A stretch of DNA of 64,000 bases from Spirochaetae bacterium HGW-Spirochaetae-1 (lineage in GTDB: Bacteria > Spirochaetota > UBA4802 > UBA5550). The position numbers and the translations under genes were made by a program. Of the stretch, positions 14,281 through 63,962 are shown piece by piece. The notes beneath the pieces were generated by a model. It was given only the letters and a program-made list of their open reading frames with translations, had not been told where the DNA came from and did no database searches. Each line of letters opens with the position of its first letter. Within the stretch, counting starts at the first letter, position 1. Location of the stretch: the NCBI GenBank assembly GCA_002839375.1, contig PGXY01000002.1:106764-170763 (forward strand), written 5' to 3'.

Positions 14281-14979
14281 TCAGATAAACAGGATTGAAC
14301 CCAAATCTATAGCGGTTTCACCGGAAAGGTATATGATTTTTTTCCCCGTGTTCTCAATAAATGATACAATCTGGTCCTCGTCGGGGTGACTGCGCAGTGT
14401 TCCCGTCAGATATACCGTATTTCCCGCGGTGCCCGAGGCCCCTCCAAGAAAACCATAACGGTAACCGGGGAGGGTGACATGGCCCGGGTTTATGAGAAGC
14501 GAAGTGATACCCGCCTTTTCAGCCTCGGCATGAATGGAACGGTCAGCCGTAATAATATGATCCTCATCGACAATGAGCGTGGAACATCGTGAGTAGCCCT
14601 GTTTAACATTATGGAGTGTGATTTTCTGGTCTGCCAGGTATTCTTTGATGCGAGGCTCTGTCCCCTCAATGCGGTGGAATGCCGCTTTTCCCGTACAGGC
14701 AATATTATAAGGTATATCTTCCGGATATGCCGGTCCCGGGACGGTTTCACACAGGGTGATGCGGCCATATTTGCCCAGTTCATGCAGAAACGACGGGGTC
14801 AGAGCCCTGTGGCAGAAGATATTCCCATTGTGTGTAAATATCTGAATGTCGGGATGCCCTGAGATGGGGCGGGAAACGCCGTCAAAATGCGGAACAGTCA
14901 GGGCTCTGACCCCCAGTTTTTTCAAATTATGAACTATTACTGCCGGTGTATCAGGATTTATTAATGCTGTTTTCATCAA
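14281..14979 (-). CDS. DUF6873 / GME-fold (amidinotransferase-like) protein
   Basis: HPDIQI, YPEDIPYN, VKQGYSRCST, ITAD, GFLGGASG and DLGSI. Confidence 0.7.
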   Translation of the reverse strand: MMKTALINPDTPAVIVHNLKKLGVRALTVPHFDGVSRPISGHPDIQIFTHNGNIFCHRALTPSFLHELGKYGRITLCETVPGPAYPEDIPYNIACTGKAAFHRIEGTEPRIKEYLADQKITLHNVKQGYSRCSTLIVDEDHIITADRSIHAEAEKAGITSLLINPGHVTLPGYRYGFLGGASGTAGNTVYLTGTLRSHPDEDQIVSFIENTGKKIIYLSGETAIDLGSILFI

Positions 14980-15126
14980 GAGAGCCTTGTATATTAAATT
15001 ACATATTAAAATACAATCTTTTTAAAAACCTATAAATAAAAAAACCTTGTCATTATATGGAAGGTTCATTGTATATTATAGTACATATATTTGTCGTCAA
15101 TTCTTTCAATAAAAGAGATTCTATGC

Positions 15127-16896
15127 ATGAAAAATCGTATATATACAGAATATAAACATATACTGACATTTATACTTTTGCTTTCGTTTTTGATTGCTGG
15201 GCCGGGCTGTGGTGGCGGAGAGAAAATCACCTATACCGATGTGTCGATTGAACACGATTATCTCGGGGGTGACTACGAAATATTTTTCCCCGATACGAGC
15301 ACCGATGTCAACCTTACCTATACGCTTAATCTGGGGTTAGACCCCAAGGATGTATTTTTTATTTTCACCAATACATCGGAGAGCAATTACGCCCTGCCGC
15401 AGCTTCTTGAAAACACCGTTTCCGGAAGGAGCGCCGACGAGGATGAACCGGCACTTTTAACGGTTCCCGAAAGTGCGGATCAAACCGTGCCCGTACTGCA
15501 GCGGGGCAAGCCGCAAATATCGGACTTTAACCGGAATGCGCTTTTAAACACCGATTCACTGTCCAGAAATATCTACGAACCGCTGGAAGATCCCATGCCT
15601 TCTAATGACACGCTAGGTGGGACCGGCACCTTTTATCTTGGTCTTTCCAGTTCCGGTTCATCCGTAAGCGCCAGCTGCCGCTACGTATCAGGTCTAATCG
15701 CCGGGAAAACGCTTAACATATGGGTTGCCAACGACTGTCTGTCCCCTTCAGGGACTAAATCCAGACTGGTGACCGATGCCATGGTTGCTGAACTGGCCAA
15801 GGTTTTTCTAAAGGACGGTGTCGATGATATCTATACCTGGGTCACGGATATTTTCGGCGATGAATGGGGCACGCCTCCCTTTACTAACCTCATCGATGAT
15901 AACAATGAAATCACTATTCTGCTCTATGATATTGACAATGATAATACTACGCCCCTGACTGAGGGGGGAGTGGCGGGATATTTTTATGCCAAGGATAATT
16001 TTAAGAGCAGCTACTATTCGGGTTCCAACCAGAGAATCATGTTCTATCTCGATGCCGTTATGTTCGCTAATGGTGACGGAACAGATGGAACTGATTGGGA
16101 CGTTTCCGACCCGTCACCGGGCGATATTGTGTCTACTTTAGCCCATGAATTTCAGCATATGATCCACTTCTACCAGAAGCAGATAAAGTATGAACTCACC
16201 ACGGGCACTGAAACCTGGCTTGATGAGATGTGTTCCCTTGTAGCCGAAGATTTTATTACCATGAAACTGGGCGCGTTGAGCGGCGCGGAACAGGTGATCA
16301 TCAAGGGGCCGCGCGGTGTTGATGGTGATACCACGGGACCAGGGCTGCCGTTTAATTATGATGGAAGGCTTCCCGCATATAATTACTATAATTATATCTC
16401 CCTGACGGACTGGCCCGATGATGATGCTTCCAATGAATTTTTTTTAATGAGCTATGCCATGAGCTATGCCTTCGGTGCCTACCTGGCCCGTAATTACGGC
16501 GGGGCGGAGTTCTTTCGGAATATTGTGCAATGTGCTTATACGGATTATCGTGCCGTGGAGTATGCCGCGGGTGTAATGGGGCATGATGATAATTTTACCA
16601 CCATCCTCCGAAACTGGGGTGTAGCCAACCTGCTTTCGGATAAAACAACGGTTCCACAGTATGAGTATAACAGCGGCACTGACGGTTTCATTGCTGATTC
16701 CCTGGGATATGTCCTGGGTTCAATCAATCTGAGAAATTATTATCCTACTCCCTTCATTTGGCCCTATCTGCCTTCCTCTTCTTCCATGTATCCCGTATCC
16801 AATTTCCTTTATATTGCCGGTGATAATATACAGGGAGCCAACACCTGGACCCTCCAGATGCGGAAGCCGGTTCGGCTTACGGTGCTGGTGAGATAA
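15127..16896 (+). CDS. M30 (hyicolysin-like) zinc metallopeptidase lipoprotein
   Basis: Lipobox GPGC; GYFYAKD, STLAHEFQHMIHF (HExxH) and WLDEMCSLVAE. The likely start is ATG 15127 (track uses 15091). Confidence 0.78.
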   Translation: MKNRIYTEYKHILTFILLLSFLIAGPGCGGGEKITYTDVSIEHDYLGGDYEIFFPDTSTDVNLTYTLNLGLDPKDVFFIFTNTSESNYALPQLLENTVSGRSADEDEPALLTVPESADQTVPVLQRGKPQISDFNRNALLNTDSLSRNIYEPLEDPMPSNDTLGGTGTFYLGLSSSGSSVSASCRYVSGLIAGKTLNIWVANDCLSPSGTKSRLVTDAMVAELAKVFLKDGVDDIYTWVTDIFGDEWGTPPFTNLIDDNNEITILLYDIDNDNTTPLTEGGVAGYFYAKDNFKSSYYSGSNQRIMFYLDAVMFANGDGTDGTDWDVSDPSPGDIVSTLAHEFQHMIHFYQKQIKYELTTGTETWLDEMCSLVAEDFITMKLGALSGAEQVIIKGPRGVDGDTTGPGLPFNYDGRLPAYNYYNYISLTDWPDDDASNEFFLMSYAMSYAFGAYLARNYGGAEFFRNIVQCAYTDYRAVEYAAGVMGHDDNFTTILRNWGVANLLSDKTTVPQYEYNSGTDGFIADSLGYVLGSINLRNYYPTPFIWPYLPSSSSMYPVSNFLYIAGDNIQGANTWTLQMRKPVRLTVLVR

Positions 16897-16912
16897 CAGG
16901 ATAATACAGAAC

Positions 16913-18169
16913 GTGTTATATCGGGATATTCATGACAGGGTATTACGCTTTCTCGAAGAAAGCAAGCCTCGCTATCTTCACATACTGGAGGAGATGGTAT
17001 CCATCAATTCCTGGACTGAAAACCGTGAAGGGGTCAGAGCCCTGGGTGAATACACGGCTGATCTCTTTGCCGGTCTGGGATTTACCCCGGAGTTTGTTCC
17101 TTCCCGGAATCCCCTTTACGGCAGTCACGTGATACTCACCAGGAAAGGTTCGGGCAGGGCATCCATATCGTGCGTGTCTCACCTTGATACGGTTTTTCCC
17201 CCCGGGGAAGAGCAGAGTCATGATTTTCATTTTCGCCTCGAAGGCGACAGTGCCTCGGGACCGGGGACCAGCGATATCAAGGGCGGGACCCTGGTAATGT
17301 TCATGATGCTCGAATCCCTCAGTCATGAAGTTCCTTCACTGTTTGAGTCCGTGAACTGGAAGCTGTTTTTCGACGCCTCGGAAGAGACCACATCCGATGA
17401 TTTCGGCACGTTCTGTCTCGACAATATGGATGCCGGTACCCTGGCATGTCTCATCTTTGAGGCCGATGGCGGCCGCATCGATGAATTCTCCCTGGTTACC
17501 TCGCGCAAGGGCAGGGCCGTTTTCACCATTGAATCTTTTGGCAGGGCGGCCCATGCCGGTTCGGCGCATAAAAGCGGCGCCAATGCCATCGTGCATCTCT
17601 GCGGAATTATAGAAAGGGCCGCGGCCCTGACGGATTATGAAAGAGGAATCACCGTGAATGTGGGCATGATCTCGGGAGGTATGGCCCTCAACCGTGTCCC
17701 CGATTATGCAGCAGCGCAGGTTGAGATGCGGGCCCATGACGAATCTGTGTTCAGGGAGTCCGTGGACGCCATGATGTCCCTGGCGGGCTCTGACCCTTCC
17801 GGGGGAAAAAGCCTTTCATGCACGGCAAAGATCAGCCTGGATCGCCGGGTTCCGTCATGGCCGGGAAATGAAAGAACGGATCATCTCTTTTCGGTCTGGG
17901 AGGAGGCTGCTTCTGTCGCGGGGATGCGGATCGTTCCTGAACAGCGAGGGGGCCTCAGTGACGGGAACTGGCTCTGGCATCGCGTGCCTGCAATCGACGG
18001 CCTGGGACCCCTGGGCGGCAATGAGCACTGTTCAGGAGGCCCCGGTAAAGACCGTATCGGGCAGGAATTTGTCATCACCGGTTCCCTGGCGCCCAAGGCG
18101 GCCTTAAATGCCCTGGCCCTGGTTATTTTGCTGCAGTCATCATCTGCGGGGTCAGAGCCCCCGGCATAG
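16913..18169 (+). CDS. M20 family metallopeptidase (carboxypeptidase G2-like)
   Basis: SHLDTVF, GPGTSDIKGG, DASEE, GRAAHAG, VNVGMISGG, GGLSDGN, IDGLGPLGG and EH. Confidence 0.88.
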   Translation: MLYRDIHDRVLRFLEESKPRYLHILEEMVSINSWTENREGVRALGEYTADLFAGLGFTPEFVPSRNPLYGSHVILTRKGSGRASISCVSHLDTVFPPGEEQSHDFHFRLEGDSASGPGTSDIKGGTLVMFMMLESLSHEVPSLFESVNWKLFFDASEETTSDDFGTFCLDNMDAGTLACLIFEADGGRIDEFSLVTSRKGRAVFTIESFGRAAHAGSAHKSGANAIVHLCGIIERAAALTDYERGITVNVGMISGGMALNRVPDYAAAQVEMRAHDESVFRESVDAMMSLAGSDPSGGKSLSCTAKISLDRRVPSWPGNERTDHLFSVWEEAASVAGMRIVPEQRGGLSDGNWLWHRVPAIDGLGPLGGNEHCSGGPGKDRIGQEFVITGSLAPKAALNALALVILLQSSSAGSEPPA

Positions 18170-18222
18170 TAAATATCGGGGCGCCGGAAATATCATGCTC
18201 TGATTTGCCCGGCCTTTTTTGC

Positions 18223-19260
18223 TCACCACCGGTTTCTGACTTCCTCGGCAAATCCGGGAAAGCGTTCCAGGGCTATCACCGTCCCGTTATCGAGCGTCAC
18301 AGTGCCGGTGTACCAGCCGAATACCTGGTGCTGTATCGATGAAATAAGGCCCAGGTTGAAATAGCTTTCCCTGTCCAGGGCCGGCTCAAAATCAAGTTCA
18401 AAGCGGCCGTCATTACTGGTGAATTTCCAGGGCTTCATGAAATCATTAGCGTCGAAGTGGAAGGTGACCTGGTTCAGCTTGTGACCTTTTCCCTCATAAA
18501 AGAGGATGTTTTCCGAAGCGGGGCTTCTGTCGCTGAAACCGTACCCGATGTTCCATCCCAGGGACTTGCCGTTGACAGTGCCCGAGGCCGAGCCCCAGTA
18601 CCAGGTGTTTTTGTATGTCCAGTTGCCGCGGCCCCAGTCGAGGCAGCCGAAGGAGTTGGTCGGCGAGAAGGTGAATATCCTGGTGCCCATGGTGACCGTT
18701 CCTTCGGCGGGCATGCAGTTGATTTTCTGGTTATAATAGAAGGCCTTTCGATTTTCGGCCCATGACGTGGCGATGACCATGCTGTCCATGTCCGGGTCCT
18801 GTTGAAGGACCAGGCGGGCCTTTAGTCCCCGGTCGCCGTAGGGCGATTCAAAGGACGGCACATCAACGGATATGATTCTTTTATTGTCCCTGATCCCGAA
18901 TTCCACGGTCATTTTTTTATCACTGAAATAGAGGTCGCCGCTTTTCGACGACGGAGGGAATCCCATGCGGCCCCGTGTCATGAGCCGGATGGTGTCGAGC
19001 TGTTTATAGGTACCGGCTTTGAAATCAACCCAGCATACGGCGACCAGCGCGGCAAAGCTCAGGTCAGACATGGTAACGGTGAGACCGTATCCGCCATCCT
19101 GGGAAATCACGGCATAATAGTCCCATTCCTTGATGCGGTGCCACGGTGCCCTGACTTTACGGCGGTCATAGTTCCACCAGGGTTTGCGTGCCCAGCCTTC
19201 GCCGGTCAGTGTGCCGTCATCTTTCAGCAGTTCCAGTGGGCCCGTTATTTCTTTCTGCAT
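18223..19260 (-). CDS. DUF2804 family protein
   Basis: RIKEWDYY, FYYNQKINCMPA, DWGRGNW, GWNIGYGF and QHQVFG. Confidence 0.88.
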   Translation of the reverse strand: MQKEITGPLELLKDDGTLTGEGWARKPWWNYDRRKVRAPWHRIKEWDYYAVISQDGGYGLTVTMSDLSFAALVAVCWVDFKAGTYKQLDTIRLMTRGRMGFPPSSKSGDLYFSDKKMTVEFGIRDNKRIISVDVPSFESPYGDRGLKARLVLQQDPDMDSMVIATSWAENRKAFYYNQKINCMPAEGTVTMGTRIFTFSPTNSFGCLDWGRGNWTYKNTWYWGSASGTVNGKSLGWNIGYGFSDRSPASENILFYEGKGHKLNQVTFHFDANDFMKPWKFTSNDGRFELDFEPALDRESYFNLGLISSIQHQVFGWYTGTVTLDNGTVIALERFPGFAEEVRNRW

Positions 19261-19288
19261 GAATATCTCCTTAATAATTTAATGAATG

Positions 19289-21058: not shown

Positions 21059-21081
21059 ATCCGACTGTTTGCCCTGTTCCT

Positions 21082-21690: not shown

Positions 21691-21811
21691 TGTGGTGTTC
21701 TCCCCGGTGATATTTGCAATTATTATGATGATATTTCCGGCGAACTGTCAATTCTATTATTACAGAATTCACCGCTTTCATGGAATATGACGGACTTTGC
21801 CTGCCCGTGTT

Positions 21812-22363: not shown

Positions 22364-22394
22364 GATATTTCCTCCACTGGGATTGATTTTTTAT

Positions 22395-23024: not shown

Positions 23025-23046
23025 AAACGAGTCTCCCTGAAAATAA

Positions 23047-23101
23047 ATAATATGAGTATTAGCTCATATTATGCTTGACAATATGAGTTAATATTCGTAT
23101 T
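23047..23101. promoter_or_regulatory. Tandem palindromic TetR-type operators
   Basis: Perfect ataatatgag-N6-ctcatattat (23047-23072) and degenerate aatatgag-N6-ttcgtatt (23080-23101) in the divergent intergenic region. Confidence 0.72.
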
Positions 23102-23103
23102 TT
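23075..23103 (+). promoter_or_regulatory. Sigma70-type promoter for the amidohydrolase gene
   Basis: TTGACA (23075-23080), 17 bp, TATTTT (23098-23103); overlapped by operator 2. Confidence 0.55.
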
Positions 23104-23205
23104 AATGTATATCGGTCAGTTGTCAAGCTGAGTATATAATTAATATCACCTTTACTAAACCGGGGCTCTGACCCCGGATTTCAAATCAGCAGGGGAGGCA
23201 GGGCT

Positions 23206-25017
23206 ATGGCGGATAATAAGAACGGGTCATTTTTAAGCAGAAAGTCCTTTATTAAAAAATCGGCACTCATCGCAGCTTCAGCGGCCCTGCCGGGTCTTTT
23301 GGCCTGCGGCAGGAATGGAACATCATATTCAACAAAAACGCCGGACTTTTCAGGCTTCGACCGTCTCATGGCGGGGAAAAGGGAGCGTCTTGCCGTAGCT
23401 GACCGGGGTTCCATGCTGCTTCTGAAAAACGGTATTATCGTGGACGGTTCCGGTGCCGGGGCCTACAGGGGGGATCTCCTTATTTCGGGAAATAGAATTG
23501 AAATGGTGACGGCCAAAGACCTGGATTTCCGGGGTCAGAGCCTTGACTGTACCGGCATGGTTATAGCACCGGGATTTATCGATATGCATGCCCACCAGGA
23601 CTTTGTGTTTCCGGTAAAAAATGCCGATCGTCATTTCATTCCTTATATCAGGCAGGGAGTGACCACCTTTTTTTGCGGCAACTGCGGTTTCAGCGCGGCA
23701 GGATTTAAAAAGAAGAGCCCCTTCAAATCGAAGATCGAAGGATTCACGAAGCTTTTTTCCGGCAGCGAATATACCTTTGCGTGGGAATCCATGGATGAGT
23801 ATCAAAGATATCTGCGGGGGAAGGGGACTCTGCAGAATATGCTGATGCTGGCCGGTGATGGTACGACCAGGATATCCCTCCAGGGCTACAGTCCCCGGGC
23901 CATGACGAGCGCCATGAAGAAGGAATATCTCTATCTCATGGAAGAGGCCATGGAGCAGGGGGCCAGGGGAGCATCCCTGGGGCTCCAGTATGAGCCGGGC
24001 ATCTTTGCCACTGATGAAGATCTCTATGACCTGGCCAGGCTTGTTAAAAAGCATGACAAGGTGCTCACGGTTCATATGAAGGCCTATTCGGCCCTGTCGC
24101 CCACCTATCCCCTCAATCCCTTTGGCGAGTCACATAACCTCATAGCCCTGAAGGAGATGCTGAAAATAGCCGGGGACACGGGAGTGCGCCTCCAGGCCTC
24201 GCATCTCATATTCGTGGGAGAAAAATCCTTTGATACCTGCTCTCGGGCCCTGGAACTCATTGATGAGGCCCGGTCAAAAGGCACGGACGTGATGTTCGAT
24301 ACCTATGCCTACAATTGCGGAATATCCAAGATTAATGTTTTTATGCCCAAGTGGTTTCTCGAAAAAACACCTGCCGCATTCACTGACAGGGGAGACCTGC
24401 TGCGGCTCAGGGCGGAACTGGAGCTCATAACCTTTCTTCTCGGTTTCGGTATGGAGGATATAAGAATTACCAACGCGCTTGTTCCGGAATACAATGACTG
24501 CAACGGCATGTTCATTCACGAGATCGCTGAAAAAAAGAATATGAGCAGCTTTGAAGTATTTGTCGATCTGGCCAGGAAATCAGGGGGCGAGGCTCATGTG
24601 CTGAACAGCCGGTACAGCTCGCAGGAAAATGTCATGGATATGATGCGACATCCCCAGTCAATTTTTATGACCGATGCCACGGTGATGGGGGAAGGGGTGC
24701 AGAACCCCGCGGCTTTCGGCAATTTCCCCCGGTTCCTTCAGCTGGCCCGGGACTATGGCCATGTGTCACTGGAACAGGTTGTTCGCAAAATGACCGGGGC
24801 CTCGGCACAACAGTTTGGCCTTAAGGACAGGGGGCTGCTGAAAAAGGGATATGCCGCCGATATCACCGTGTTTGACTGGAAGAATATCGCCGATAACAAT
24901 GTGGCAGGAAAAACCGATCAGTCCCCGCGGGGGATAGGCACGGTAATTGTAAACGGCACACCGGTTCTGAAAAACGGCATACCCGTGGTGAACCGTAAAC
25001 CGGGGATGGTCCTGTAG
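23206..25017 (+). CDS. N-acyl-D-amino acid deacylase family amidohydrolase, probably a Tat-exported lipoprotein
   Basis: SRKSFIK Tat-like motif and LLAC lipobox; PGFIDMHAHQD, GNCG, TVHMK, SHL and MTD match the D-aminoacylase metal ligands. Confidence 0.85.
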   Translation: MADNKNGSFLSRKSFIKKSALIAASAALPGLLACGRNGTSYSTKTPDFSGFDRLMAGKRERLAVADRGSMLLLKNGIIVDGSGAGAYRGDLLISGNRIEMVTAKDLDFRGQSLDCTGMVIAPGFIDMHAHQDFVFPVKNADRHFIPYIRQGVTTFFCGNCGFSAAGFKKKSPFKSKIEGFTKLFSGSEYTFAWESMDEYQRYLRGKGTLQNMLMLAGDGTTRISLQGYSPRAMTSAMKKEYLYLMEEAMEQGARGASLGLQYEPGIFATDEDLYDLARLVKKHDKVLTVHMKAYSALSPTYPLNPFGESHNLIALKEMLKIAGDTGVRLQASHLIFVGEKSFDTCSRALELIDEARSKGTDVMFDTYAYNCGISKINVFMPKWFLEKTPAAFTDRGDLLRLRAELELITFLLGFGMEDIRITNALVPEYNDCNGMFIHEIAEKKNMSSFEVFVDLARKSGGEAHVLNSRYSSQENVMDMMRHPQSIFMTDATVMGEGVQNPAAFGNFPRFLQLARDYGHVSLEQVVRKMTGASAQQFGLKDRGLLKKGYAADITVFDWKNIADNNVAGKTDQSPRGIGTVIVNGTPVLKNGIPVVNRKPGMVL

Positions 25018-25091
25018 ACATTACGCTCCCGGCGGCCCGTATTGCAAATTATAATTCAGTATGCAGAGCCCATATTAAGATAATCCACCCA

Positions 25092-25538: not shown

Positions 25539-25752
25539 CGTTTCCTGTTATAAGGCGCTCTGTCCCCACTGTCAAGCCATTGATTTTTGTCAAGATAAAT
25601 AAAAAAAATTGAGTTTTTTTAGATTTAATTAATTGGTTAAAAAGTTAACTAAACATAGTAATTATTATTGACAACTTTTTGATTTTATTGTTTATTATAA
25701 TTGATCGATTAGTTAATGTACATATCGATATTTATAATGTCGGGGATAAATT

Positions 25753-31647: not shown

Positions 31648-31649
31648 AA

Positions 31650-51488: not shown

Positions 51489-54110
51489 ATGAAACAAACC
51501 GGTGAAAAGAGGATACTCAGAAGTGACTATAAGGAACCGAATTTTCTCATACCCCAAATCGATCTGACATTCAACCTCCATGACTCCAGTACCATGGTAA
51601 CCAATATGATGGAGATCATACGGAATGGTCATGGAAGCGATCCCCTGGTACTCAATGGGGAAAAACTGAAACTGCTCTCCGTGGAGATTGACGGCCGCAC
51701 CATGGATGCTTCAGAGTATGATGCCACGGAGGCTTCTCTGGTTATTACGGATGTCCCGGACCGGTTTACCCTGAAGCTGGCTACGGAAATAAATCCTCGT
51801 GATAACCAGGCTCTGGAGGGACTGTATAAATCGGGAAAGGTTTTCTGCACCCAGAACGAGCCCGAGGGATTCCGTAAAATCACCTTTTTCATCGATCGGC
51901 CCGATGTTATGAGCCGGTTTACTACTAAAATTATTGGCGACTCGAAAAGTTGTCCCGTCCTTCTGGCCAACGGCAACCTCGTTGAGGAGGTAAGCCTGGG
52001 CGACGGCAGACACTGGGTCAAATGGGAGGACCCCTTTCCCAAGCCGGCCTATCTCTTTGCCCTGGTGGCGGGGGACCTGGGACTGGTACGCGATAGCTTT
52101 ACCACCATGTCGGGGCGCACTGTCGATCTTCGCATCTACTGCGATCCCGGCAATGAATCCCGCTGTTATCACGCCATGGAGTCCCTGAAAAAGGCCATGA
52201 AGTGGGACGAGGAGCGTTTTGGTCTGGAATACGACCTGGATATCTACATGATCGTGGCTGTGGATACCTTTAACATGGGAGCCATGGAAAACAAGGGTCT
52301 CAATGTATTCAATTCACACTATGTTCTGGCCAACCCGGAAACGGCCACGGATACCAATTATCTCGGCATCGAGAGTGTCATCGCCCATGAGTATTTTCAC
52401 AACTGGACCGGGAACCGAGTTACTCTCAGGGACTGGTTTCAACTGACCCTGAAGGAGGGACTCACGGTATTCCGCGACCAGGAATTCTCCTCGGATATCC
52501 AGTCCAGGCCCGTGCAGAGAATCCTCGATGTCAACGGTCTGAGAACCGTTCAGTTCACCGAGGATGCCGGTCCCAACGCCCATCCCATCCGGCCCGACAG
52601 CTATCTGGAGATAAATAATTTTTATACGGCCACGGTCTATGAAAAGGGAGCCGAGGTCATCAGGATGATACATACCATCCTGGGAGAGGAGGGCTTTCAA
52701 AAGGGGATGTGGCGATATTTTGAGCTCCATGACGGTCATGCCGTGACCTGCGATGATTTTGTACATGCCATGGAATCAGCGACCGATACGGACCTGGCAC
52801 AGTTCAGGCTCTGGTACAGCCGGGCCGGGACGCCTGTCCTGGCCATTGAGACCGGATATGATCAGGAAAAAAGGCAGTATGCCATTACCGTGCGTCAGGA
52901 TATTCCCCGGGAGCAGAACCGGGAAGACACGGGCCCCATGCACATGCCCCTGGCCGTGGGACTTCTGGATGCCCGTGGCCGGGATATGCTGGGCGAAGAC
53001 GGTACGGTCGTGCTGCAGATAAGGGAGCGTGAGGAACGCTTTGTTTTCGAGGGAATAAATGAGAAGCCCGTGCCCTCGCTTAACAGGAACTTTTCCGCTC
53101 CGGTAAGAATCGATTATGCCTGGTCTCATGAAGAACTCAAACTTTTATTCATGCGCGACAGCGATGCCTTCAACCGGTGGGACGCGGGACAGGTAGTAAC
53201 CAGGGGAATCCTGAAGGACTATGTGACGGCCATTCAACGGGGAGTATCATGCTCCATGAACGAGGACATAGCCCCAGTCTTCGGGGCTATTATCGATGAT
53301 GAGGCTATGGATAAAAATTTCAAGGCCCTTATGCTGGAGCTCCCTTATGAATCAATCCTGGTGCAGGAGTACAGTCCCGTTGACTTTAATGCCATACATG
53401 AAGCACGGAATTGTCTCAGGCGGGAAATGGGATGTTCATTCAGAGACGGGTTTCACCGCATGTTCATGTCACTGGAAGGAAAAGGGGAATTTTCCCTGAG
53501 CATGGAGGCCATGGGGAAACGGGCTTTGCGCCTGCGCGCCCTGGACTATCTCGTTGAGACCGGTGAGGATGAATTTCTCGCGCTCTGTCACGATCTCTAT
53601 GAAAAAGCGGGAAACATGACCGATGCCCTGGGTGCACTCTCCCTGTTGGCCGGAACGGACAACTCCTACAGGGACAGAGCCCTGACGCATTTTTATGAAA
53701 AATGGAAACATGACCAGGTGGTTATTACCAAGTGGTTTTCCGTACAGTCCCTTTCGGGGCTTCCCGGGACGCTTGAGCGGGTGAAAGAGCTCGAGGCTGA
53801 TCCCGCCTATGACATTAAAGTCCCCAACCTGGTGCGTTCCGTTGTGGGAGCCTTTACCCAGAATCTGGTGAATTTTCATCATGAGTCGGGCAGCGGGTAT
53901 GTATATGCAGCGGACCGCATCATGGAGATCGATGCCTTCAATCCATCCATCTCATCAATGCTGGCCAAGGCCTTCAAGCTCTATCCCCGCGTGGATGCGG
54001 GAAGGAAAGAACACATGAAGCGGCAGCTGGAGCGCATAGCCGATCTCGGGGATCTTTCAAAAAACACCCGTGAGATCGTGGAGAAGACCCTGGAGAATTC
54101 CAGTTCCTGA
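51489..54110 (+). CDS. pepN: Aminopeptidase N (M1 family)
   Basis: TQNEPEGFRKIT, GAMENKGLN, HEYFHNWTGNRVT, LKEGLT, YEKGAE and PNLVRS. The likely start is ATG 51489 (track uses 51468). Confidence 0.96.
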   Translation: MKQTGEKRILRSDYKEPNFLIPQIDLTFNLHDSSTMVTNMMEIIRNGHGSDPLVLNGEKLKLLSVEIDGRTMDASEYDATEASLVITDVPDRFTLKLATEINPRDNQALEGLYKSGKVFCTQNEPEGFRKITFFIDRPDVMSRFTTKIIGDSKSCPVLLANGNLVEEVSLGDGRHWVKWEDPFPKPAYLFALVAGDLGLVRDSFTTMSGRTVDLRIYCDPGNESRCYHAMESLKKAMKWDEERFGLEYDLDIYMIVAVDTFNMGAMENKGLNVFNSHYVLANPETATDTNYLGIESVIAHEYFHNWTGNRVTLRDWFQLTLKEGLTVFRDQEFSSDIQSRPVQRILDVNGLRTVQFTEDAGPNAHPIRPDSYLEINNFYTATVYEKGAEVIRMIHTILGEEGFQKGMWRYFELHDGHAVTCDDFVHAMESATDTDLAQFRLWYSRAGTPVLAIETGYDQEKRQYAITVRQDIPREQNREDTGPMHMPLAVGLLDARGRDMLGEDGTVVLQIREREERFVFEGINEKPVPSLNRNFSAPVRIDYAWSHEELKLLFMRDSDAFNRWDAGQVVTRGILKDYVTAIQRGVSCSMNEDIAPVFGAIIDDEAMDKNFKALMLELPYESILVQEYSPVDFNAIHEARNCLRREMGCSFRDGFHRMFMSLEGKGEFSLSMEAMGKRALRLRALDYLVETGEDEFLALCHDLYEKAGNMTDALGALSLLAGTDNSYRDRALTHFYEKWKHDQVVITKWFSVQSLSGLPGTLERVKELEADPAYDIKVPNLVRSVVGAFTQNLVNFHHESGSGYVYAADRIMEIDAFNPSISSMLAKAFKLYPRVDAGRKEHMKRQLERIADLGDLSKNTREIVEKTLENSSS

Positions 54111-57070: not shown

Positions 57071-57073
57071 ACC

Positions 57074-58495
57074 ATGAGAACGGGAAGGCTTTATATAAAG
57101 ATATTTGTTTCTTTCATGGTCCTTCTCCTGATCATGGAATTCTTAATATTTGCCGCCTTCAGGCTGATATTGGGGAATCCCTTTCACGAACGCTTTGAAC
57201 AGTACGTGAATGCCGGGAGTCTGATCATCGGAACCCTGACGGAAGAGGCTCTGACCCTTCCTGGACGTGATCCGGAGAATCCCTATCCAAAACTACGCGA
57301 TCTTTTTACTGAACTGGATAGCCGGTACGGCCTCATGGTTTGGATCGAATCGGGCGGTAAATATATTGTGAAATCCTTCCAGGGAGAGCCGTCTTTCATG
57401 ACACCGGCCCACAGGTCTATAGAAAGGGAGAATTACCGGGTTTCATGGGGAAAGAGAAACGAGAATATCCATATGATTCTTCCTCTTAAAACGGCAACAA
57501 TTGCCAATGCCTCTCTCCATTTATACTACGCACGCCGCGGGGTCAGAGCCTTCGAAAGGGATTTTGCCCTTGCCCTGGCCTTTCTGGGCCTTATAATGGC
57601 GCTTCTCATATTTCCCCTTTCCCGATACATCACGGAACCTCTGAAAAAATTGAAGGCATCGGCTCTCAGGATATCCTGGGGGCGCCTGCAGGAGAGGGTG
57701 CAGGTGCGGGGGAGGGATGAAATAGGTGAACTGGCCGACGCCTTTAATACCATGGCCGAAAAGCTGGAATATATGGTCACGGGGACGAAAATGCTCACGG
57801 CCCATATCTCCCACGAACTGCGTTCTCCCCTGGCCAGGATACGCATTGCCGGGGAACTGCTCGAAGATCGTCTGAAGGGAAACAATACAGGGGCATGTCT
57901 TCCGCTCCTGGAAACGATTAAAGAAGAGATTCAGGATATGGATACGCTCATCGGCCGGATATTGCAGCTGACGAAGATGGATATTCATGGCGCCGAATCA
58001 ATGGAACAATCCTTCGATGCGGCAGCCATGGCCAGGGATGCGGTGAAGCGTTTTGAACCGGTGTTGGAAAGTAGAAGCCTTCATTTCAGTCTTGATATTC
58101 CTGAAGTGCAATTTCTCATGACGGGTGATCCCGATGATATAAAGACTGCATTTAACAACATTATTGACAATGCCGTGAAGTATTCACCCCCCGGGAGCTC
58201 AATACAGATGGAAATGAAGAGAGCGGGAGATGGCATGACGCTCACCGTGAAAAATGACACCCTTTCTCCCGTGGGCACTGATCCGGAAAAACTCCTGCAA
58301 CCCTTCCAGAGAGGAAAGAATGCCGATATACCGGGATACGGGCTGGGACTGGCCATCGTTCAAAAAATTGTGGAAAACCATGGAGGGGCTCTGACCCTCT
58401 ACTGGCGGGAGAACCGTTTTGAGATTTATCTTTCCTTTCCTCTGGAAGCAGTGAACAATGGAAACTCATACAGATACAGAAATGCGGGGAAATAA
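57074..58495 (+). CDS. HAMP-domain sensor histidine kinase (CpxA-like)
   Basis: Two TM helices, HAMP DEIGELADAFN, ISHELRSPLARI, NIIDNAVKY, PFQRG and GLGLAIV. Confidence 0.94.
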   Translation: MRTGRLYIKIFVSFMVLLLIMEFLIFAAFRLILGNPFHERFEQYVNAGSLIIGTLTEEALTLPGRDPENPYPKLRDLFTELDSRYGLMVWIESGGKYIVKSFQGEPSFMTPAHRSIERENYRVSWGKRNENIHMILPLKTATIANASLHLYYARRGVRAFERDFALALAFLGLIMALLIFPLSRYITEPLKKLKASALRISWGRLQERVQVRGRDEIGELADAFNTMAEKLEYMVTGTKMLTAHISHELRSPLARIRIAGELLEDRLKGNNTGACLPLLETIKEEIQDMDTLIGRILQLTKMDIHGAESMEQSFDAAAMARDAVKRFEPVLESRSLHFSLDIPEVQFLMTGDPDDIKTAFNNIIDNAVKYSPPGSSIQMEMKRAGDGMTLTVKNDTLSPVGTDPEKLLQPFQRGKNADIPGYGLGLAIVQKIVENHGGALTLYWRENRFEIYLSFPLEAVNNGNSYRYRNAGK

Positions 58496-58645: not shown

Positions 58646-58707
58646 TACTTTTAGAAGAGAATATAATAAATCGGATTCTGAACGTTAACTGACGTGTAGA
58701 TTATGGT

Positions 58708-60585
58708 ATGGATTATTTTTATCAGGAGAAACAGATGAAAAGGAAGGATGCGCGTCCTTCAAATTTTCATAGTCTGGAGCCCGATTTCAGGCGTCCCCTG
58801 TATCGGCTTCGTGAAGATATTCGCAGCAGAATCTTTTCAATGCTGGTTCAACTCTATGGTGAAACCAAAGCCCGCAGGTATATAAAAGAACTGGAGCGAG
58901 TGATATCGGTCTATCATGCCCACAAGACCGATGAGATGATGGAATGGGAGAGCCATTTCAGACCCGAAGACCGGTTTACAAACGAGGATGCTATCCTGAT
59001 AACCTACGGCAACCTGGTGGTGGACAAACATAAAAAACCACTGAAGACCCTGGACGAGATGTCCCATAAATACCTGAGGGGTGTTTTCAATACTATTCAT
59101 ATCCTGCCCTTTTTCCCGTCTTCGTCGGACCGCGGTTTTGCCATCAGCGACTACCGCCAGGTGGACCCGGATCTGGGTACCTGGGAGGATATCATAGACT
59201 TGAAGAATGATTTTCGCCTCATGTTTGACGGTGTTATCAACCACGTATCTTCCAAGAGCTTCTGGTTCCAGGAATTTCTCAATGGCAACCCGGCCTACCA
59301 GGGATACTTCACTCATTTTCCCGAGCGAAGAAATGTTCCACGGAAAAAGCTGAACAAACTCATGAGGCCCCGTACCAGTGAAGTCCTGACACCATTCCAT
59401 TCGTATAACGGCAGGCGCCTCGTGTGGACAACCTTCAGTCCTGATCAGATCGACCTGAAGTTTCAGAACCCCATGGTGCTCATCAAGATAATAGAAATTC
59501 TCCTGTTTTATATTCGCAGGGGGGCTGATATTATCCGCCTCGACGCCGTCACCTATCTTTGGGACGAATTGGGCACCACGGGCGCAAACCTTTCCCAGAC
59601 CCACACTATCATAAAACTGTTCAGGCTTATCCTCGATGCCGTGGTTCCTCATGTGGCCATTGTCACCGAGACCAATGTGCCTCACAGCGATAACATCACC
59701 TACTTTGGAAGCGGTTATGACGAGGCACAACTGGTGTATAATTTCGCCCTGCCGCCGCTTATCCTTCACACGTTTCATAACAGCACGGCCGCGAAGCTGA
59801 CACAATGGGCTCGTGAATTAAAGAATCCCTCGCTGTATGCCACTTATCTCAATTTTCTCGACAGTCATGACGGGATAGGAGTACTGGGTGCCCGGGAGTT
59901 TCTCACCGATGAGGATATAGAACTCATGGCGGAGCGTGTAACACAGCGCGGGGGGCTGATATCCTATCGGACCGATAAAGATGGAAAAGAATCTATCTAC
60001 GAGCTGAATATCACCTTTTATAGCGCCCTGAACTGTGAGGAGTCCGGAGAGGAAGTGGATTTCCAGGTGAATCGTTATATTGCCGCCCGTTCCATTCCGT
60101 TGGTGATAATCGGTGTTCCGGGGGTGTATCTGCACGGTCTTCTGGGTTCAAAAAACGATATTGAAGCGGTTAAGCATGAAAAGGACAAACGCAGCATCAA
60201 CCGCGATGTTCTCAGCAGAAAAGAACTGGAAAAGGCCATGGAAGATTTTTCAACCACAACGGCCCGGGTAGCCCATCGCCTGTCATTTCTCATACAGAAA
60301 AGGACCAGGGAAAAGGCCTTTCATCCCCAAGGGGGTCAGAGCATACTTACAGTTTCCGATGCAGTTTTTGCCGTCCTCAGAACATCTCCGGACGGCAATG
60401 AAAATATACTGGCAATCACCAGTGTTATACCGGAAAAACAGCAGGTGAAGATTTCCCTGGCTGAATTCATACGTCATCGGAAGTGGGTTGACATCCTCAC
60501 CGGTGACGAATATTTCGTTGCTAATAGTGTATTTACATTGAATCTGGAACCATATGAAGTACTCTGGCTTAAAATGCAGGTTTAA
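58708..60585 (+). CDS. GH13_18 sugar phosphorylase, probably glucosylglycerate phosphorylase
   Basis: HILPFFP, DRGFA, WTTFSPDQIDL, RLDAV, TETNV, DSHDGIG and YELN. Confidence 0.85.
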   Translation: MDYFYQEKQMKRKDARPSNFHSLEPDFRRPLYRLREDIRSRIFSMLVQLYGETKARRYIKELERVISVYHAHKTDEMMEWESHFRPEDRFTNEDAILITYGNLVVDKHKKPLKTLDEMSHKYLRGVFNTIHILPFFPSSSDRGFAISDYRQVDPDLGTWEDIIDLKNDFRLMFDGVINHVSSKSFWFQEFLNGNPAYQGYFTHFPERRNVPRKKLNKLMRPRTSEVLTPFHSYNGRRLVWTTFSPDQIDLKFQNPMVLIKIIEILLFYIRRGADIIRLDAVTYLWDELGTTGANLSQTHTIIKLFRLILDAVVPHVAIVTETNVPHSDNITYFGSGYDEAQLVYNFALPPLILHTFHNSTAAKLTQWARELKNPSLYATYLNFLDSHDGIGVLGAREFLTDEDIELMAERVTQRGGLISYRTDKDGKESIYELNITFYSALNCEESGEEVDFQVNRYIAARSIPLVIIGVPGVYLHGLLGSKNDIEAVKHEKDKRSINRDVLSRKELEKAMEDFSTTTARVAHRLSFLIQKRTREKAFHPQGGQSILTVSDAVFAVLRTSPDGNENILAITSVIPEKQQVKISLAEFIRHRKWVDILTGDEYFVANSVFTLNLEPYEVLWLKMQV

Positions 60586-60696
60586 ATCAGATTTATTATG
60601 CTGGCTCTGACCCCTTGGATCGTTTGGAACTCTGACGGAGGCTCTGACCCCTTGAATTGACGGGAATCCTGTTCTGTAATTATTATAAAGGAGATT

Positions 60697-61656: not shown

Positions 61657-61754
61657 TTTCCCAGGGGTCAGAGCCTTGATAGGCTCCAGGACGTGATTCT
61701 AAGTAACAAGGGGCTCTGTCCCTTCTCTCGTGATTTTTTAAAGGATCCCCGTCC

Positions 61755-62639
61755 TTAATGGGAGGACGTCATGGATGCATGGACCACGATAATGATATCG
61801 GCAGTTCCACGGTATTGTTCTTCAAGCATATCAAGAGAGCCCTGTGTGACGGTATTTATCGTGGTGATACTCAAATCACCATGATTTTTTTTCAGATACC
61901 AGATGATTCCTTCATTGTAATTGGAGTGATATGACCCGTTAAAATGGATAAAGGTCTGACCCTTCCGTAGATTTTTCCCTATGAACCAGGCCATGGTAGC
62001 ATCCTTCAGCGCCTGGGCTTCGGCCAGATATCCTTTCGTGTGCACAGCAATATGGGTGGGGTCAGAGCCTCCCAGTTTTTCCGTAATTTCCCTATATGAT
62101 TTAAGATTACTATCGAAAGGGATAGGCAGGGGCGCTATGTACTGTCTGGCCTGAACCGGGAGTTCCTGCAGGGCCTCGAAGCCATTTTTGAATACCATGG
62201 ATGCATAGCGGCGCGGAACGTTGGTGGCAATGAAGGGATATTTATTGTCCCGGGCGAATTGCAGGAGAGGCCTGTAATCTGTCTTATAATTAGGCCATAA
62301 TCGAGCTTCCTCTTCGAATCTGGAGTCGGTGATAAGTCCTGCCAGATATTCGTCAATGCTGAGCTGGTTGTCGCTTTCCATCATTTCAGCGCCAAGAATC
62401 ATCTTATGGCCTGCAATATATAGATCTTTAATAAGCTCCAGTTCCAGCCAATGCGCAATAGGATTGTTGTGCAGTTCACCGAAGAATACTATATCGGCAT
62501 TCTGTGCGCGGACCAGCAAATCGGTATAAAGGGCTCTGTCCCCGTTTCCTGAAAAAAGGCGATATGCCGGTTTATCTTGGGGAAGTAGAGGGGTCAGAGC
62601 CGTTACGCATAGCAGTGTTATTAATACTGTTTTCTTCAT
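61755..62639 (-). CDS. chaN: ChaN family (haem-uptake/Tiki-like) exported protein
   Basis: DIVFFGELHN, LGAEMME, WPNYKTDYRPL, ATNVPRR, AQALKDATMA and HFNGSYHS. Confidence 0.82.
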   Translation of the reverse strand: MKKTVLITLLCVTALTPLLPQDKPAYRLFSGNGDRALYTDLLVRAQNADIVFFGELHNNPIAHWLELELIKDLYIAGHKMILGAEMMESDNQLSIDEYLAGLITDSRFEEEARLWPNYKTDYRPLLQFARDNKYPFIATNVPRRYASMVFKNGFEALQELPVQARQYIAPLPIPFDSNLKSYREITEKLGGSDPTHIAVHTKGYLAEAQALKDATMAWFIGKNLRKGQTFIHFNGSYHSNYNEGIIWYLKKNHGDLSITTINTVTQGSLDMLEEQYRGTADIIIVVHASMTSSH

Positions 62640-62762
62640 ATCATCAACCTGGCATTCATTAACCTTTATCCGGGAAATTCAAGTATAGTAATTACTATGG
62701 ATAACTGATGAATATATCAGTTACAAAATAAAGAAGAGAGACAGTTGCGGTGATAATAGATG

Positions 62763-63962
62763 TTATTTGACGTCGGGTTCATTCTCCGGCGGTTCATGCC
62801 CGGTAATGGCCTCAAATATCCTCGTAGCAACAGGAGGACATCCTTTAACAAAGGTATATTTATCCGAATGCAATCGTGCACAGTTGCCTATAAGGACAGT
62901 CCCTTCACGGATATCTTTTTCAGTCACCCCCTTGCCAATTGCCAGTGCAAGGGTTTTATCATCGGGAATATATTGCTCCATATCCTTTTTGAATCTCTTC
63001 AGGAAAAGCATGACTGTGGACAGGCAGGCGCTGCATGAATCGATATCAACAAGCTCCACGTCGGGATATTCAATTGATATATCCTTCGGCGGGTCGCGGT
63101 ATTCAGTGATATATTCCTGGTAATTTTCCGGTATAACATGATAACCCCCTGCCTCAGGGGACAGACCCAGACGTTCAGCAATCAGACGCAGGTGCGGGAT
63201 ATCGCCAGGTTTTTTTCCCATGAGGGTGGCGCCGATGATATCTGCACCCAGGGGATGGGCAGACGCCAGGGCGAAATTTGAGTGTACCGGATCGCCTCCC
63301 GAAGGCCCTAGGCCATCCATGCCAATGTATCCGTCAATAACCGTAATGTCGGGCAGCAGTATTGTGGCCATGTCTGATATAGCCAGATCCAGGGTTTTTT
63401 CCTGATGCTCTGACCCCGGACGCCATTCAAGTTGATGATACCGGATCTTTTCCCGGCGGTACAGACAGCCCTTCATATTTTTTATTCCCAGGGTGACGCC
63501 GGTGTGCATGTGACATTTTGCTACGGGCAGTGAAAGGAGGATATCAAACTTGTAGATTGTACTGCATATTTTGGTGTTGTCCAGAACCAGTCCATGAGGA
63601 ATCTCTTTCGTGATAAAATCACGTGCATCCATATCGATAAGTTCACAGTCATACTTCTCTGCTACATCTGAAATGCCTGAAAGAGAAAAAGCCTTCGTCA
63701 CATCGACGCCTACAATGGGGCTTTCACCAATGGCGATTTTTCCGGCACCACCGAGTCTGAGGGCCTCGATAACGCCAGCAACGGCATCGGGATGTGTGTT
63801 GATTCCCTTGCCTGGACCCACCATGCGGCCTATGTTTGGTTTGATGAGAACTGATTTACCCCGAAATATGGAAGTATCAATTTTCATCATTGCCTGCCGG
63901 GCGTTCTCCAAAGGGCCATGGCCTGCGATAACAAATACATCTTTATCAGTAAATGCTTTCAT
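62763..63962 (-). CDS. DUF362 domain protein with Cys-rich (probable Fe-S) C-terminus
   Basis: VLIKPN, THPD, IAIGES, KCHMHTGVTLGIKNMKG, GPSGG; CSAC, GNC and KGCPP. Confidence 0.85.
   Translation of the reverse strand: MKAFTDKDVFVIAGHGPLENARQAMMKIDTSIFRGKSVLIKPNIGRMVGPGKGINTHPDAVAGVIEALRLGGAGKIAIGESPIVGVDVTKAFSLSGISDVAEKYDCELIDMDARDFITKEIPHGLVLDNTKICSTIYKFDILLSLPVAKCHMHTGVTLGIKNMKGCLYRREKIRYHQLEWRPGSEHQEKTLDLAISDMATILLPDITVIDGYIGMDGLGPSGGDPVHSNFALASAHPLGADIIGATLMGKKPGDIPHLRLIAERLGLSPEAGGYHVIPENYQEYITEYRDPPKDISIEYPDVELVDIDSCSACLSTVMLFLKRFKKDMEQYIPDDKTLALAIGKGVTEKDIREGTVLIGNCARLHSDKYTFVKGCPPVATRIFEAITGHEPPENEPDVK

Follow-up and report, generated by a model that had tools for sequence, protein, structure and literature searches.

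A 12-nt word repeated in working genes of Spirochaetota is probably the end sequence of a Y1 transposase unit

According to the prevailing view, RAYT and TIRYT transposases, together with their repeats, belong to the DNA between genes. In IS200/IS605 elements, the left and right subterminal hairpins differ, and we know of no report of such elements leaving solo end-words behind in genes by the hundreds. Coding regions are known to contain DNA uptake sequences. For the TIRtrons, Y1 transposase genes (TIRYT) have been described that are flanked by inverted repeats sharing the sequence GGGGWSAS (Di Nocera, De Gregorio and Rocco 2013, BMC Genomics 14:522, PMC3733652), and intragenic REPs are described as insertions in the same work (PMC3733652). 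The REP/REPIN-RAYT systems are covered by Nunvar 2010 (PMC2817692) and by Bertels and Rainey 2011 (PMC3116915), and the structure of E. coli TnpA-REP is available as 4er8 (PMC3479197).

Here we analysed a stretch of 64,000 nt, referred to as the window, and compared it with further loci, which carry L-numbers where they have to be told apart (L001 is a strain). We conclude, with a probability of about 0.75, that a RAYT/TIRYT-type Y1 (HUH) single-strand DNA transposase unit, of which an intact copy lies 49 nt past the window, has the word (G)GGGWCAGAGC(C) as its recognition or end sequence. The core GGG(T/A)CAGAGC and the conserved block G-GGGWCAGAGC-C were recovered from the coordinates cited in an earlier, sequence-only reading of this DNA. 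An exact search of the window for GGGWCAGAGC yields 23 matches, 12 of them on the + strand and 11 on the - strand, compared to 0.20 expected from 100 dinucleotide shuffles, in which the maximum was 2. When one mismatch is permitted, 37 matches are found versus 5.8 expected; word copies are therefore nearly always perfect. The window and its extension together hold 35 copies in 72.6 kb. Neighbouring copies in the window alternate in orientation at 21 of 22 pairs.

Most copies (17 of 23) are located in coding sequence, namely in ORFs with Pfam domains. Since 92% of the window is coding, the six intergenic copies represent a 3.4-fold intergenic excess (P = 0.006). For the gene copies, nine sense and eight antisense, no departure from uniform use of the five open frames is seen (chi-square P = 0.61), and the claim of the sequence-only reading that the word lies inside intact genes in all five stop-free frames is borne out. 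Its remark that the sixth frame is never used is correct yet trivial, because this frame contains TGA. The peptides it had listed for the T-form were all recovered: GVRA at 14903, 17031 and 57540, GQS at 23532 and 60333, GSE at 18149 and 63407, ALT at 14796, 57248, 58388 and 62591, and GSDP at 17787 and 62059. A-form gene copies encode ALS, GTE, RDRA and GDRA. Orthologue alignments also confirm its suggestion that the M20 C-terminal tail, the ChaN signal peptide and a ChaN loop are tolerant sites. Positions, contexts and orthologue comparisons are collected in the table.

Table. Word copies in the window and the transposase unit beyond its end, with the corresponding residues in orthologues or the state of the copy at compared loci
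Feature	Position	Strand	Context and encoded peptide	Comparison
A-form copy	12211..12220	+	antisense in CdaA-like gene 11591-13066(-); ALS	present in window and L001; L002 differs at 3/10 core positions (4 of the 11-mer)
Decayed copy (GGGTTAGAGC)	14264..14273	+	between two convergent genes	exact in L001 and L002, therefore lost in the window via a C>T change
A-form copy	14655..14664	-	sense in DUF6873 gene; GTEP	xxT[DE]xx, no indel
T-form copy	14796..14805	+	antisense in DUF6873 gene; RALTP	PDI[DS]x, no indel
T-form copy	14903..14912	-	sense in DUF6873 gene; GVRA	G[LFI]EP, no indel
T-form copy	17031..17040	+	sense in M20 peptidase gene; GVRA	GVN[AR] or GVDR, no indel
T-form copy	17787..17796	-	antisense in M20 gene; GSDP	loop of variable length; orthologues have 2 aa more
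T-form copy	18149..18158	+	M20 C-terminal tail; GSEP	tail clade-specific in orthologue alignment
Intergenic T-form copy	23165..23174	-	32 nt upstream of amidohydrolase start codon	extended by its flanks into a hairpin with a 7-bp stem
T-form copy	23532..23541	+	sense in amidohydrolase gene; RGQSL	
Intergenic A-form copy	25557..25566	-	exact match	L002 has a second same-orientation copy 58 nt from the equivalent copy
A-form copy	53671..53680	+	sense in PepN (M1 aminopeptidase) gene; RDRA	
T-form copy	57248..57257	-	antisense in histidine kinase gene; EALTL	
T-form copy	57540..57549	+	sense in histidine kinase gene; GVRA	
T-form copy	58388..58397	-	antisense in histidine kinase gene; GALTL	
T-form copy ending ...GCA	60333..60342	+	sense in alpha-amylase-family gene; GGQS	A[RP]QR, no indel
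Two same-orientation intergenic copies (60604, 60641; 37 nt apart)	60604..60650	-	between amylase and Na/Ca-exchanger genes	both kept in L089
Inverted intergenic pair (61665 +, T-form; 61713 -, A-form)	61665..61722	.	between convergent genes	
T-form copy	62059..62068	+	antisense in ChaN gene; GSDP	most orthologues have this loop shorter by 4 aa (12 nt)
A-form copy	62533..62542	-	sense in ChaN gene; GDRA	GKKA or GKxx, no indel
T-form copy	62591..62600	+	antisense in ChaN signal peptide; TALTP	region 2 aa longer than in orthologues
T-form copy ending ...GCA	63407..63416	-	sense in DUF362 gene; GSEH	
Spacer up to transposase unit, last window bases	63963..64000	-	inside window	
Decayed word copy after transposase stop	window-equivalent 64025		outside window	
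Intact 196-aa Y1 (RAYT/TIRYT-like) gene	window-equivalent 64049-64636	-	outside window, 49 nt past its end	
Hairpin pair of word copies upstream of transposase start	window-equivalent 64723+/64751-		outside window	

In the transposase unit, two inverted word copies form an upstream hairpin, the 196-aa gene follows, and a further copy lies just past the stop codon. The protein matches Pfam Y1_Tnp (PF01797) with E = 4e-10 and carries the HUH motif (NHIHIL) and a tyrosine motif of the YxxxNP type (WYIGYNPVRKGL). Its best NCBIfam model is the REP-associated tyrosine transposase NF047646, with 61 bits, which is below its curated cut-off of 80; it does not pass the IS200 model NF033573 (28 bits versus a cut-off of 55). 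The AF2 model finds 4er8, the E. coli RAYT-REP complex, as its top PDB match (E = 6e-7), above the IS608 and ISDra2 TnpA structures. The upstream elements are strong single-strand hairpins of -12 and -22 kcal/mol (z = -7 and -10); in the folding computation inverted dimers fold, and solo copies do not fold alone. Neither a GTAG nor a CGTC tag was found with the word. Several transposase paralogues were found, and two other assemblies break within the transposase gene. The sequence-only reading had recognized the motif as an anonymous one and had missed the unit just outside the window; with this find, the anonymous motif becomes a transposase-linked one.

The association is kept in seven homologue contexts, which cover 65-100% identity, several organisms and other Spirochaetota. 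All seven carry, at 66-88 nt upstream of the ATG, a - copy with a T-tract after it, and six of seven have a + copy 0-40 nt past the stop. At L104, where the word is otherwise rare, the three flank copies of the transposase gene are the only ones. At L108 the variant GGTGTCAGAGCTT is located at the flanks of the local transposase gene, and the commonest 10-mer there is GCTCTGACAC, with 15 copies in 15.8 kb. L112 and L113, two loci of one contig that may or may not belong to the genome of the window, carry an identical unit in which homology starts at the upstream hairpin and stops at the downstream word, and each holds 15 word copies. In the window sequence, density is 2.8 copies per kb at 0-2.5 kb from the gene and falls to 1.4 at 2.5-5 kb, 0.37 at 5-10 kb, 0.1 at 10-20 kb and 0 at 20-38 kb. 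Of the 14 non-flank copies counted at five other loci, 13 are found within 3.5 kb of the transposase gene (P = 7e-6). Between half and three quarters of solo copies sit inside host genes, in any frame without a stop. A second cluster (12.2-25.6 kb) speaks against the link, as it lies 38-52 kb from the transposase gene and a search for a transposase remnant in it found none. There are no word copies in 1-12 kb or 25.6-53.6 kb of the window; the latter 28 kb are ordinary core genes of normal composition.

The word is constrained as DNA, as the sequence-only reading had proposed. In strains that differ by about 10%, 21 of 23 cores show no change, and this includes third codon positions as well as the copies between genes. 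Compared with relatives at this divergence, 4 of 230 core positions of the window are changed at a background of 10.7% (P ~1e-7), with 2 of 53 third codon positions within cores changed versus 19.9% (P = 8e-4) and 0 of 60 intergenic-copy positions versus 17% (P = 1e-5). There is no support for the further proposal of a site-biased protein diversification, since the sites behave as cold spots and represent the most conserved DNA of their genes; the same few peptides are imposed, which amounts to convergence rather than diversity. Hypervariability is confined to the 4 nt immediately 5' of each site, with 32% divergence versus the 10.7% background (P = 1e-7). This hot zone replicates in L001 (15% versus 3.4%, P = 0.002) and L099 (18% versus 8.6%, P = 0.03). 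Part of it could stem from copies becoming established solely where proteins evolve fast, although it decays within about 5 nt.

How the gene copies arose can be judged from motif-free orthologues. At six of ten gene sites the alignment shows no indel, with 1-5 residues replaced, and the one word gain seen in strain L001 alone occurred by substitution. The idea of the earlier reading that copies are written over near-matching sequence by substitution is supported as a pattern; the remaining four of ten sites fall in length-variable segments. Given these four sites and a ChaN loop that is longer by exactly 12 nt, so that an insertion is possible at 62059, some copies may be insertions. That gene copies in general are in-frame 12-nt mini-elements (four codons) or remnants of larger REP-like units appears unlikely to us. 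The longer ChaN loop and signal peptide, the clade-specific M20 tail, the whole-unit indels that separate the intergenic arrays of the strains and the precedent of intragenic REPs as insertions (PMC3733652) would fit this origin, but known intragenic REPs add 20-30 residues, while the six sites match their orthologues column by column at the same length and the L001-specific gain is a substitution.

A binding site for a host regulator or nucleoid protein unrelated to the transposase, with the flank copies as a secondary capture, would explain strict conservation and the direct arrays, spaced at 28-29 nt, that precede an OmpR-type regulator gene (L089, 19832-19992) and a GH18 gene (L085). We consider it quite improbable, as regulators do not normally keep about one site per kb inside coding sequence, the flank geometry persists across homologues of 65-100% identity even where the word is rare (L104), the word is the boundary of the unit and it co-varies at L108. 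A DNA uptake sequence of the Neisseria DUS or Pasteurellaceae USS type, a self tag for transformation that accrues via uptake bias and recombination, is very improbable. The word does have the length (10-12 nt), the non-palindromic form, the use of both strands and all open frames in genes, the conservation between strains, an inverted pair between convergent genes and 'dialects' in related lineages, ending ...GCA and GTGTCAGAGC. Its spread, however, is strongly patchy and not the even one over core genes, with 28 kb of these free of copies and density peaking at the transposase gene and dropping with distance; the gene is bracketed in 7/7 lineages (downstream copy in 6/7) by a word that co-varies with it, the word delimits an identical mobile unit, and promoter regions carry direct arrays. 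Recombination sites, with inversions or cassette exchange between inverted copies, are barely plausible. The alternating orientation, a hyperdivergent M30 gene between copies 14903- and 17031+ and a Na/Ca-exchanger gene exactly bracketed by 60641- and 61665+ point in this direction, but all three strains are collinear, the divergent M30 block ends ~250 and ~80 nt inside the copies, contigs of four runs show no joints at copies, and orientation does not alternate at L112, L113 and L108. The reciprocal T/G difference at 66685/66741 has a collinear spacer and is therefore not an inversion.

Returning to the word as a transposase end sequence, we suggest that solo gene copies arose mostly by point substitution over part-matching sequence in tolerant parts of proteins, and that they would persist since the transposase, or a process depending on it, acts on them in single-stranded DNA. 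They might be kept by selection because sites bound by the transposase serve some function, or alternatively by a conversion-like drive, and the 4-nt hypervariable zone may mark the point at which the enzyme cuts and rejoins. A stronger version is doubtful: the Y1 transposase, or repair triggered by its nicking of single-stranded DNA, would turn near-matching host sequence into the 12-nt word and then keep the copies perfect. Such a length-neutral 'motif conversion' in working genes would leave the 4-nt 5' zone as a scar and recode 1-5 residues per site. We know of no Y1-transposase reaction that yields substitutions, and of no motif-conversion chemistry of the substitution type among HUH enzymes.

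The end-word is found here inside ordinary enzymes, sensors and transporters, where it overrides family-typical residues and is conserved above the host genes. It thus provides a concrete and testable example of how a mobile-element signal can mould protein sequence with no insertion involved. Solo half-sites, hairpin dimers and arrays form a natural substrate set for probing a poorly understood enzyme class, and the unit explains why assemblies of groundwater Spirochaetota genomes break and why 'mystery motifs' turn up in them.

Similar to the TIRtrons, a RAYT-like Y1 gene lies between inverted copies of a short sequence whose distances from the gene vary little, GGGG(T/A)CAG is an exact fit to GGGGWSAS (the L108 variant GGTGTCAG has the third G replaced), and the repeat family is moderately abundant with dimers and clusters. 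In contrast to them, conservation covers just 12 nt, solo half-sites in protein-coding genes make up most of the window copies, and the apparent gain by substitution and the strong DNA-level constraint are not described in PMC3733652. With the REP-RAYT systems the unit shares a predicted fold closest to 4er8, a gene flanked by its own repeats, single-strand hairpins from inverted dimers, a repeat that co-varies with the transposase lineage and alternating-orientation clusters that recall BIMEs. REPs, however, are extragenic palindromes of 20-40 nt tagged with GTAG, whereas this word lacks GTAG, is non-palindromic as a solo copy and has 17 of its 23 copies in coding sequence; typical RAYTs are single-copy and vertically inherited, and the present gene is multi-copy and identical between loci, as in an IS. 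The IS200/IS605 elements (IS608, ISDra2) have in common with it the Y1 HUH transposase, an identical unit at several loci, a subterminal hairpin at one end and an expected action on single-stranded DNA. They differ in lacking terminal inverted repeats, while here a single word, in opposite orientations, makes up both ends, and the unit here has no TnpB gene. Like DUS and the cyanobacterial HIP1, the word apparently accrues in genes by substitution, in frames and positions that the protein tolerates, and is conserved above its surroundings. Those words are spread genome-wide with no tie to a transposase gene, whereas this one is densest around the transposase locus, whose ends it makes up.

A Y1 transposase unit has the word GGG(T/A)CAGAGC at its ends. 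A 196-aa gene with the Pfam Y1_Tnp domain lies directly after the DUF362 gene in a relative, past the window end. The source genome itself carries an intact copy of this gene 49 nt past the window, as seen on a JGI contig matching 12.2 kb of the window at 100% identity. The top NCBIfam model for the protein is the REP-associated tyrosine transposase, whose 61 bits do not reach the cut-off of 80, and the IS200 model scores 28 bits. Both an HUH and a Y-x3-NPV motif occur in the protein. The fold nearest to its AlphaFold model (mean pLDDT 75) is 4er8 (E = 6e-7, TM 0.63), the complex of E. coli RAYT with a REP hairpin, followed by the IS608 and ISDra2 transposases; PDB sequence searches, run both with the protein alone and as a profile, yielded nothing beyond weak IS200 matches. 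The family is large in Spirochaetota. The seven homologue contexts, with identities of 65-100%, all have a '-' copy with a T-tract after it, 66-88 nt ahead of the start codon, and in six of them a '+' copy follows the stop at a distance of 0-40 nt. In the source genome, in the close strain L089 and at locus L101 the upstream element is an inverted pair, with single-stranded DNA folding energies of -12 to -22 kcal/mol (z = -7 and -10). An identical unit is present at two loci of one 1.5-Mb contig (L112 and L113), with homology from the upstream hairpin to the downstream word and unrelated flanks beyond. Two other assemblies break within the transposase gene, which is expected because the unit is multi-copy. 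At L104, the three transposase-flank copies are the only copies within 20 kb. The transposase flanks at L108 carry the variant word GGTGTCAGAGCTT, and the commonest 10-mer of this locus is GCTCTGACAC with 15 copies in 15.8 kb, or 18 with all variant forms, most of the variant copies being intergenic. A DprA (DNA_processg_A) gene, the sole competence-related gene seen, lies 5 kb from the paralogous transposase unit at L101, a proximity that is probably coincidental.

Within the window we count 23 exact copies, 12 on the plus and 11 on the minus strand, with 0.20 expected and a maximum of 2 in any of 100 dinucleotide-preserving shuffles. The motif is recovered at the coordinates given by the sequence-only reading, and its core is preceded by G and followed by C in most cases. 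Copies are nearly always perfect, since allowing one mismatch adds only 14 further sites, with about 5.6 expected. A full-text literature search for the word returned eukaryotic primers only, an Rfam scan of the window gave no match, and a search for paired copies in viral contigs found only unrelated tandem repeats.

Solo copies, which stand apart from the unit, concentrate near it. Copy density falls from 2.8 per kb within 2.5 kb of the transposase gene in the source genome to 1.4 at 2.5-5 kb, 0.37 at 5-10 kb, 0.1 at 10-20 kb and 0 at 20-38 kb. Of 14 copies outside the flanks at five further loci, 13 are no more than 3.5 kb from the gene (P = 7e-6). This concentration accounts for the cluster at 53-64 kb. 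Proximity to the transposase does not account for cluster 1, which holds 10 copies at 0.69 per kb and lies 38-52 kb from the gene; no transposase remnant was found near it at E <= 10. At the corresponding DUF2804 locus of other species (DUF2804 60-64% identical) there are no copies and no other over-represented word. The two clusters are separated by 28 kb of copy-free core genes, bounded by two inverted A-form copies. A foreign island was considered for this middle part and rejected, its genes being ordinary (A2M, Lhr helicase, PepN, MCP) and its GC content normal. More distant Spirochaetota have the word at their own transposase genes. At L085, from a more distant lineage, a GH18-family gene is preceded by four copies of GGGGTCAGAGCA in direct orientation and followed, past its stop, by two that are inverted; a further two, inside the gene, encode GVRA and GQS. 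No copy occurs in the initial 9 kb of this contig. Two MAGs labelled Leptospira biflexa (L022, L024) contain the 10-mer ATCCGGAAAA 10 and 7 times in 21 kb, which may be another lineage-specific over-represented word; GGGGACGGAGGT is a different word again, from another spirochaete.

From one copy to the next, orientation switches at 21 of the 22 steps in the window (P = 5e-6), the only exception being one tandem step, and each patch begins with a + copy and finishes with a - copy. Including the sequence past the window end, 29 of 34 steps alternate. Alternation is at chance at L112 (7/14), L113 (8/14) and L108 (10/17), together 25/45. Matching of A- and T-forms between neighbouring inverted copies (7/11 and 7/10) was not above expectation in a pairing test.

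It had been proposed from the sequence that the motif lies inside intact genes and that the constraint acts on DNA rather than protein, and both statements are borne out. Seventeen of the 23 copies are inside ORFs that are real genes, with encoded peptides exactly as listed before. These genes code for a DUF6873 protein, M20 peptidase, amidohydrolase, CdaA-like protein, PepN, histidine kinase, alpha-amylase-family enzyme, ChaN and DUF362 protein, and diverge by 6.3%, 4.6% and 19.9% at first, second and third codon positions. Usage of the five stop-free frames is even (P = 0.61), with 9 sense and 8 antisense copies; non-use of the sixth frame is uninformative because it contains TGA. Since 92% of the window is coding, the six intergenic copies amount to a 3.4-fold intergenic preference (P = 0.006).

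Solo copies are kept unchanged at the DNA level. The M20 protein led to two close relatives, which were retrieved with 10 kb of flanking sequence: L001 is 96.5% identical to the source genome at the nucleotide level, L002 is 88-91% identical, its JGI contig running on as L084, and L089 has a stretch identical to L002 from another sample. The genomes of the source, L001 and L002 are collinear, with copies at orthologous positions. Compared with the more distant relative, cores are identical at 21 of 23 sites. Changes affect 4 of 230 core positions against a background of 10.7% (P about 1e-7), 2 of 53 third codon positions within cores against 19.9% (P = 8e-4) and 0 of 60 intergenic core positions against 17% (P = 1e-5). 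Both the A-form and the ...GCA variant stay as they are from strain to strain. Two sites show single losses of a copy, and at one further site L002 is off at 3 of 10 core positions (4 of the 11-mer). Strain differences in intergenic arrays are whole-unit indels. L089 has an array of five same-orientation copies upstream of an OmpR-type response-regulator gene, the last four spaced 27-29 nt. In the source genome, deletions of unit size have removed two of these units, and two substitutions have degraded a third. Two inverted copies 56 nt apart in a histidine kinase gene past the window differ reciprocally, with G-form then T-form in the source genome and T-form then G-form in the close strain L099, so that word position 4 also tolerates G; an inversion was rejected because the spacer is collinear. 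The M30 peptidase gene is hyperdivergent, with 32-47% nucleotide difference to L002 (neighbour genes 6-10%); against L001, in which it is three ORFs, the most divergent bin reaches 9.6% and neighbouring bins 1-3%. Its right boundary is sharp. The motif was rejected as breakpoint, since the boundaries miss copies by about 80 and 250 nt.

The conserved block spans 12 nt, from position -1 to +10. Directly 5' of it, at positions -5 to -2, 32% of bases differ between the source genome and the distant relative, with a background of 10.7% (P = 1e-7), and background level is regained by position -6. This hot zone is replicated against L001 (15% vs 3.4%, P = 0.002) and, past the window, against L099 (18% vs 8.6%, P = 0.03). 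For the 3' flank (+11 to +13), an elevated value (27%) is seen only in the comparison with the distant relative. Flank substitutions are of mixed types, and no pattern of compensatory change between the two hypervariable flanks was found. A substitution hotspot had been suggested at and beside the motif: between strains the DNA just beside it is indeed hot, but the motif itself is cold, and the proposed protein diversification is not borne out. The 5' hot zone could be the zone of cleavage and rejoining. It could also stem partly from copies settling only in tolerant positions.

The proposed origin of gene copies by substitution holds up as the pattern at most sites compared. The comparison covered ten gene sites and orthologues of 45-62% identity that lack the motif (alignments A1, M20; A2, ChaN; A3, DUF6873; A4, amylase). 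Identical residues in identical codons among the orthologues would have spoken against the proposal, and this was not seen. Six of the ten align column for column without length change, with 1-5 family-typical residues replaced per site: GVRA in this clade for GVN[AR] in M20, GVRA for G[LFI]EP, RALTP for PDI[DS]x and GTEP for xxT[DE]xx in DUF6873, GDRA for GKKA in ChaN and GGQS for A[RP]QR in amylase. One copy present only in L001, and absent from L002 too, is a gain by substitution, with GGG GAC AGA GCC for GGC GAC AGT GCC and no indel. The other four sites lie in length-variable segments, namely, in M20, the C-terminal tail and a loop shorter by 2 aa and, in ChaN, the signal peptide, longer by 2 aa, and a loop longer by 4 aa (12 nt), and for such a minority of sites in-frame 12-nt insertions may be the source. 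The nearest homologues of ChaN beyond the clade (about 55% identity) are all from Bacteroidota, which suggests horizontal acquisition of this gene.

Table. Coordinates of the features discussed, in window or window-equivalent numbering and at other loci
Feature	Window numbering	Other locus	Strand
Transposase gene of the source genome	64049-64636		-
Cluster 1 (12.2-25.6 kb)	12211-25566		
Bounds of copy-free block	25557; 53671		-; +
Range of alternation steps in window	12211-63416		
Tandem step	60604/60641		
Multi-base difference in L002	12211		
Copy lost in source genome	14264		
Copy lost in L002	17031		
Copy gained in L001	17244		
5' hot-zone examples	14791-14794; 17026-17029		
Inverted pair in histidine kinase gene	66685, 66741	L099 7237, 7293	
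Array upstream of OmpR-type gene	68507-68582	L089 19832-19992	
M30 peptidase gene	15091-16896		
Most divergent bin against L001	14.8-15.8 kb		
Right boundary of M30 divergence	~16950		
ChaN gene	61755-62639		
GH18-family gene		L085 9056-10083	
DprA gene		L101 4292-5215	

How solo copies arise and persist can be framed around the transposase. The enzyme would recognise the word in single-stranded DNA, solo copies would persist owing to this interaction, and new copies would arise by point substitution over partial matches. We know of no HUH-enzyme reaction that writes substitutions, so the cautious view is that copies arise by point mutation and are favoured by selection or drive; the bolder view, that an enzyme-dependent conversion process creates them, appears unlikely to us. 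A DNA uptake sequence would have many surface features in common with the word. Such a role conflicts with the patchy placement of copies, with the decay of their density away from the transposase and with the word being the boundary of the unit. Binding by an unrelated host factor is likewise at odds with the data, as the geometry around the transposase gene is conserved and the word co-varies with it at L108. A role as recombination sites does not agree with the collinearity in every comparison or with the lack of junctions. Logan contigs from four groundwater runs, which are assembled sequence and not reads, contained no within-population variation and no joints at the copies.

We conclude that the word and its transposase are a variant within the TIRtron/RAYT repeat family. 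In the TIRtrons described by Di Nocera et al. (2013; PMC3733652), a RAYT-like gene (TIRYT) has inverted repeats on either side, and GGGGWSAS is common to several of these repeats. The GGGG(T/A)CAG of the word fits this consensus exactly. Alternating REPs are described as typical of BIMEs (PMC2817692). Similar to BIMEs, neighbouring copies in the window alternate in orientation; in contrast to them, the spacing here reaches kilobases and alternation is local.
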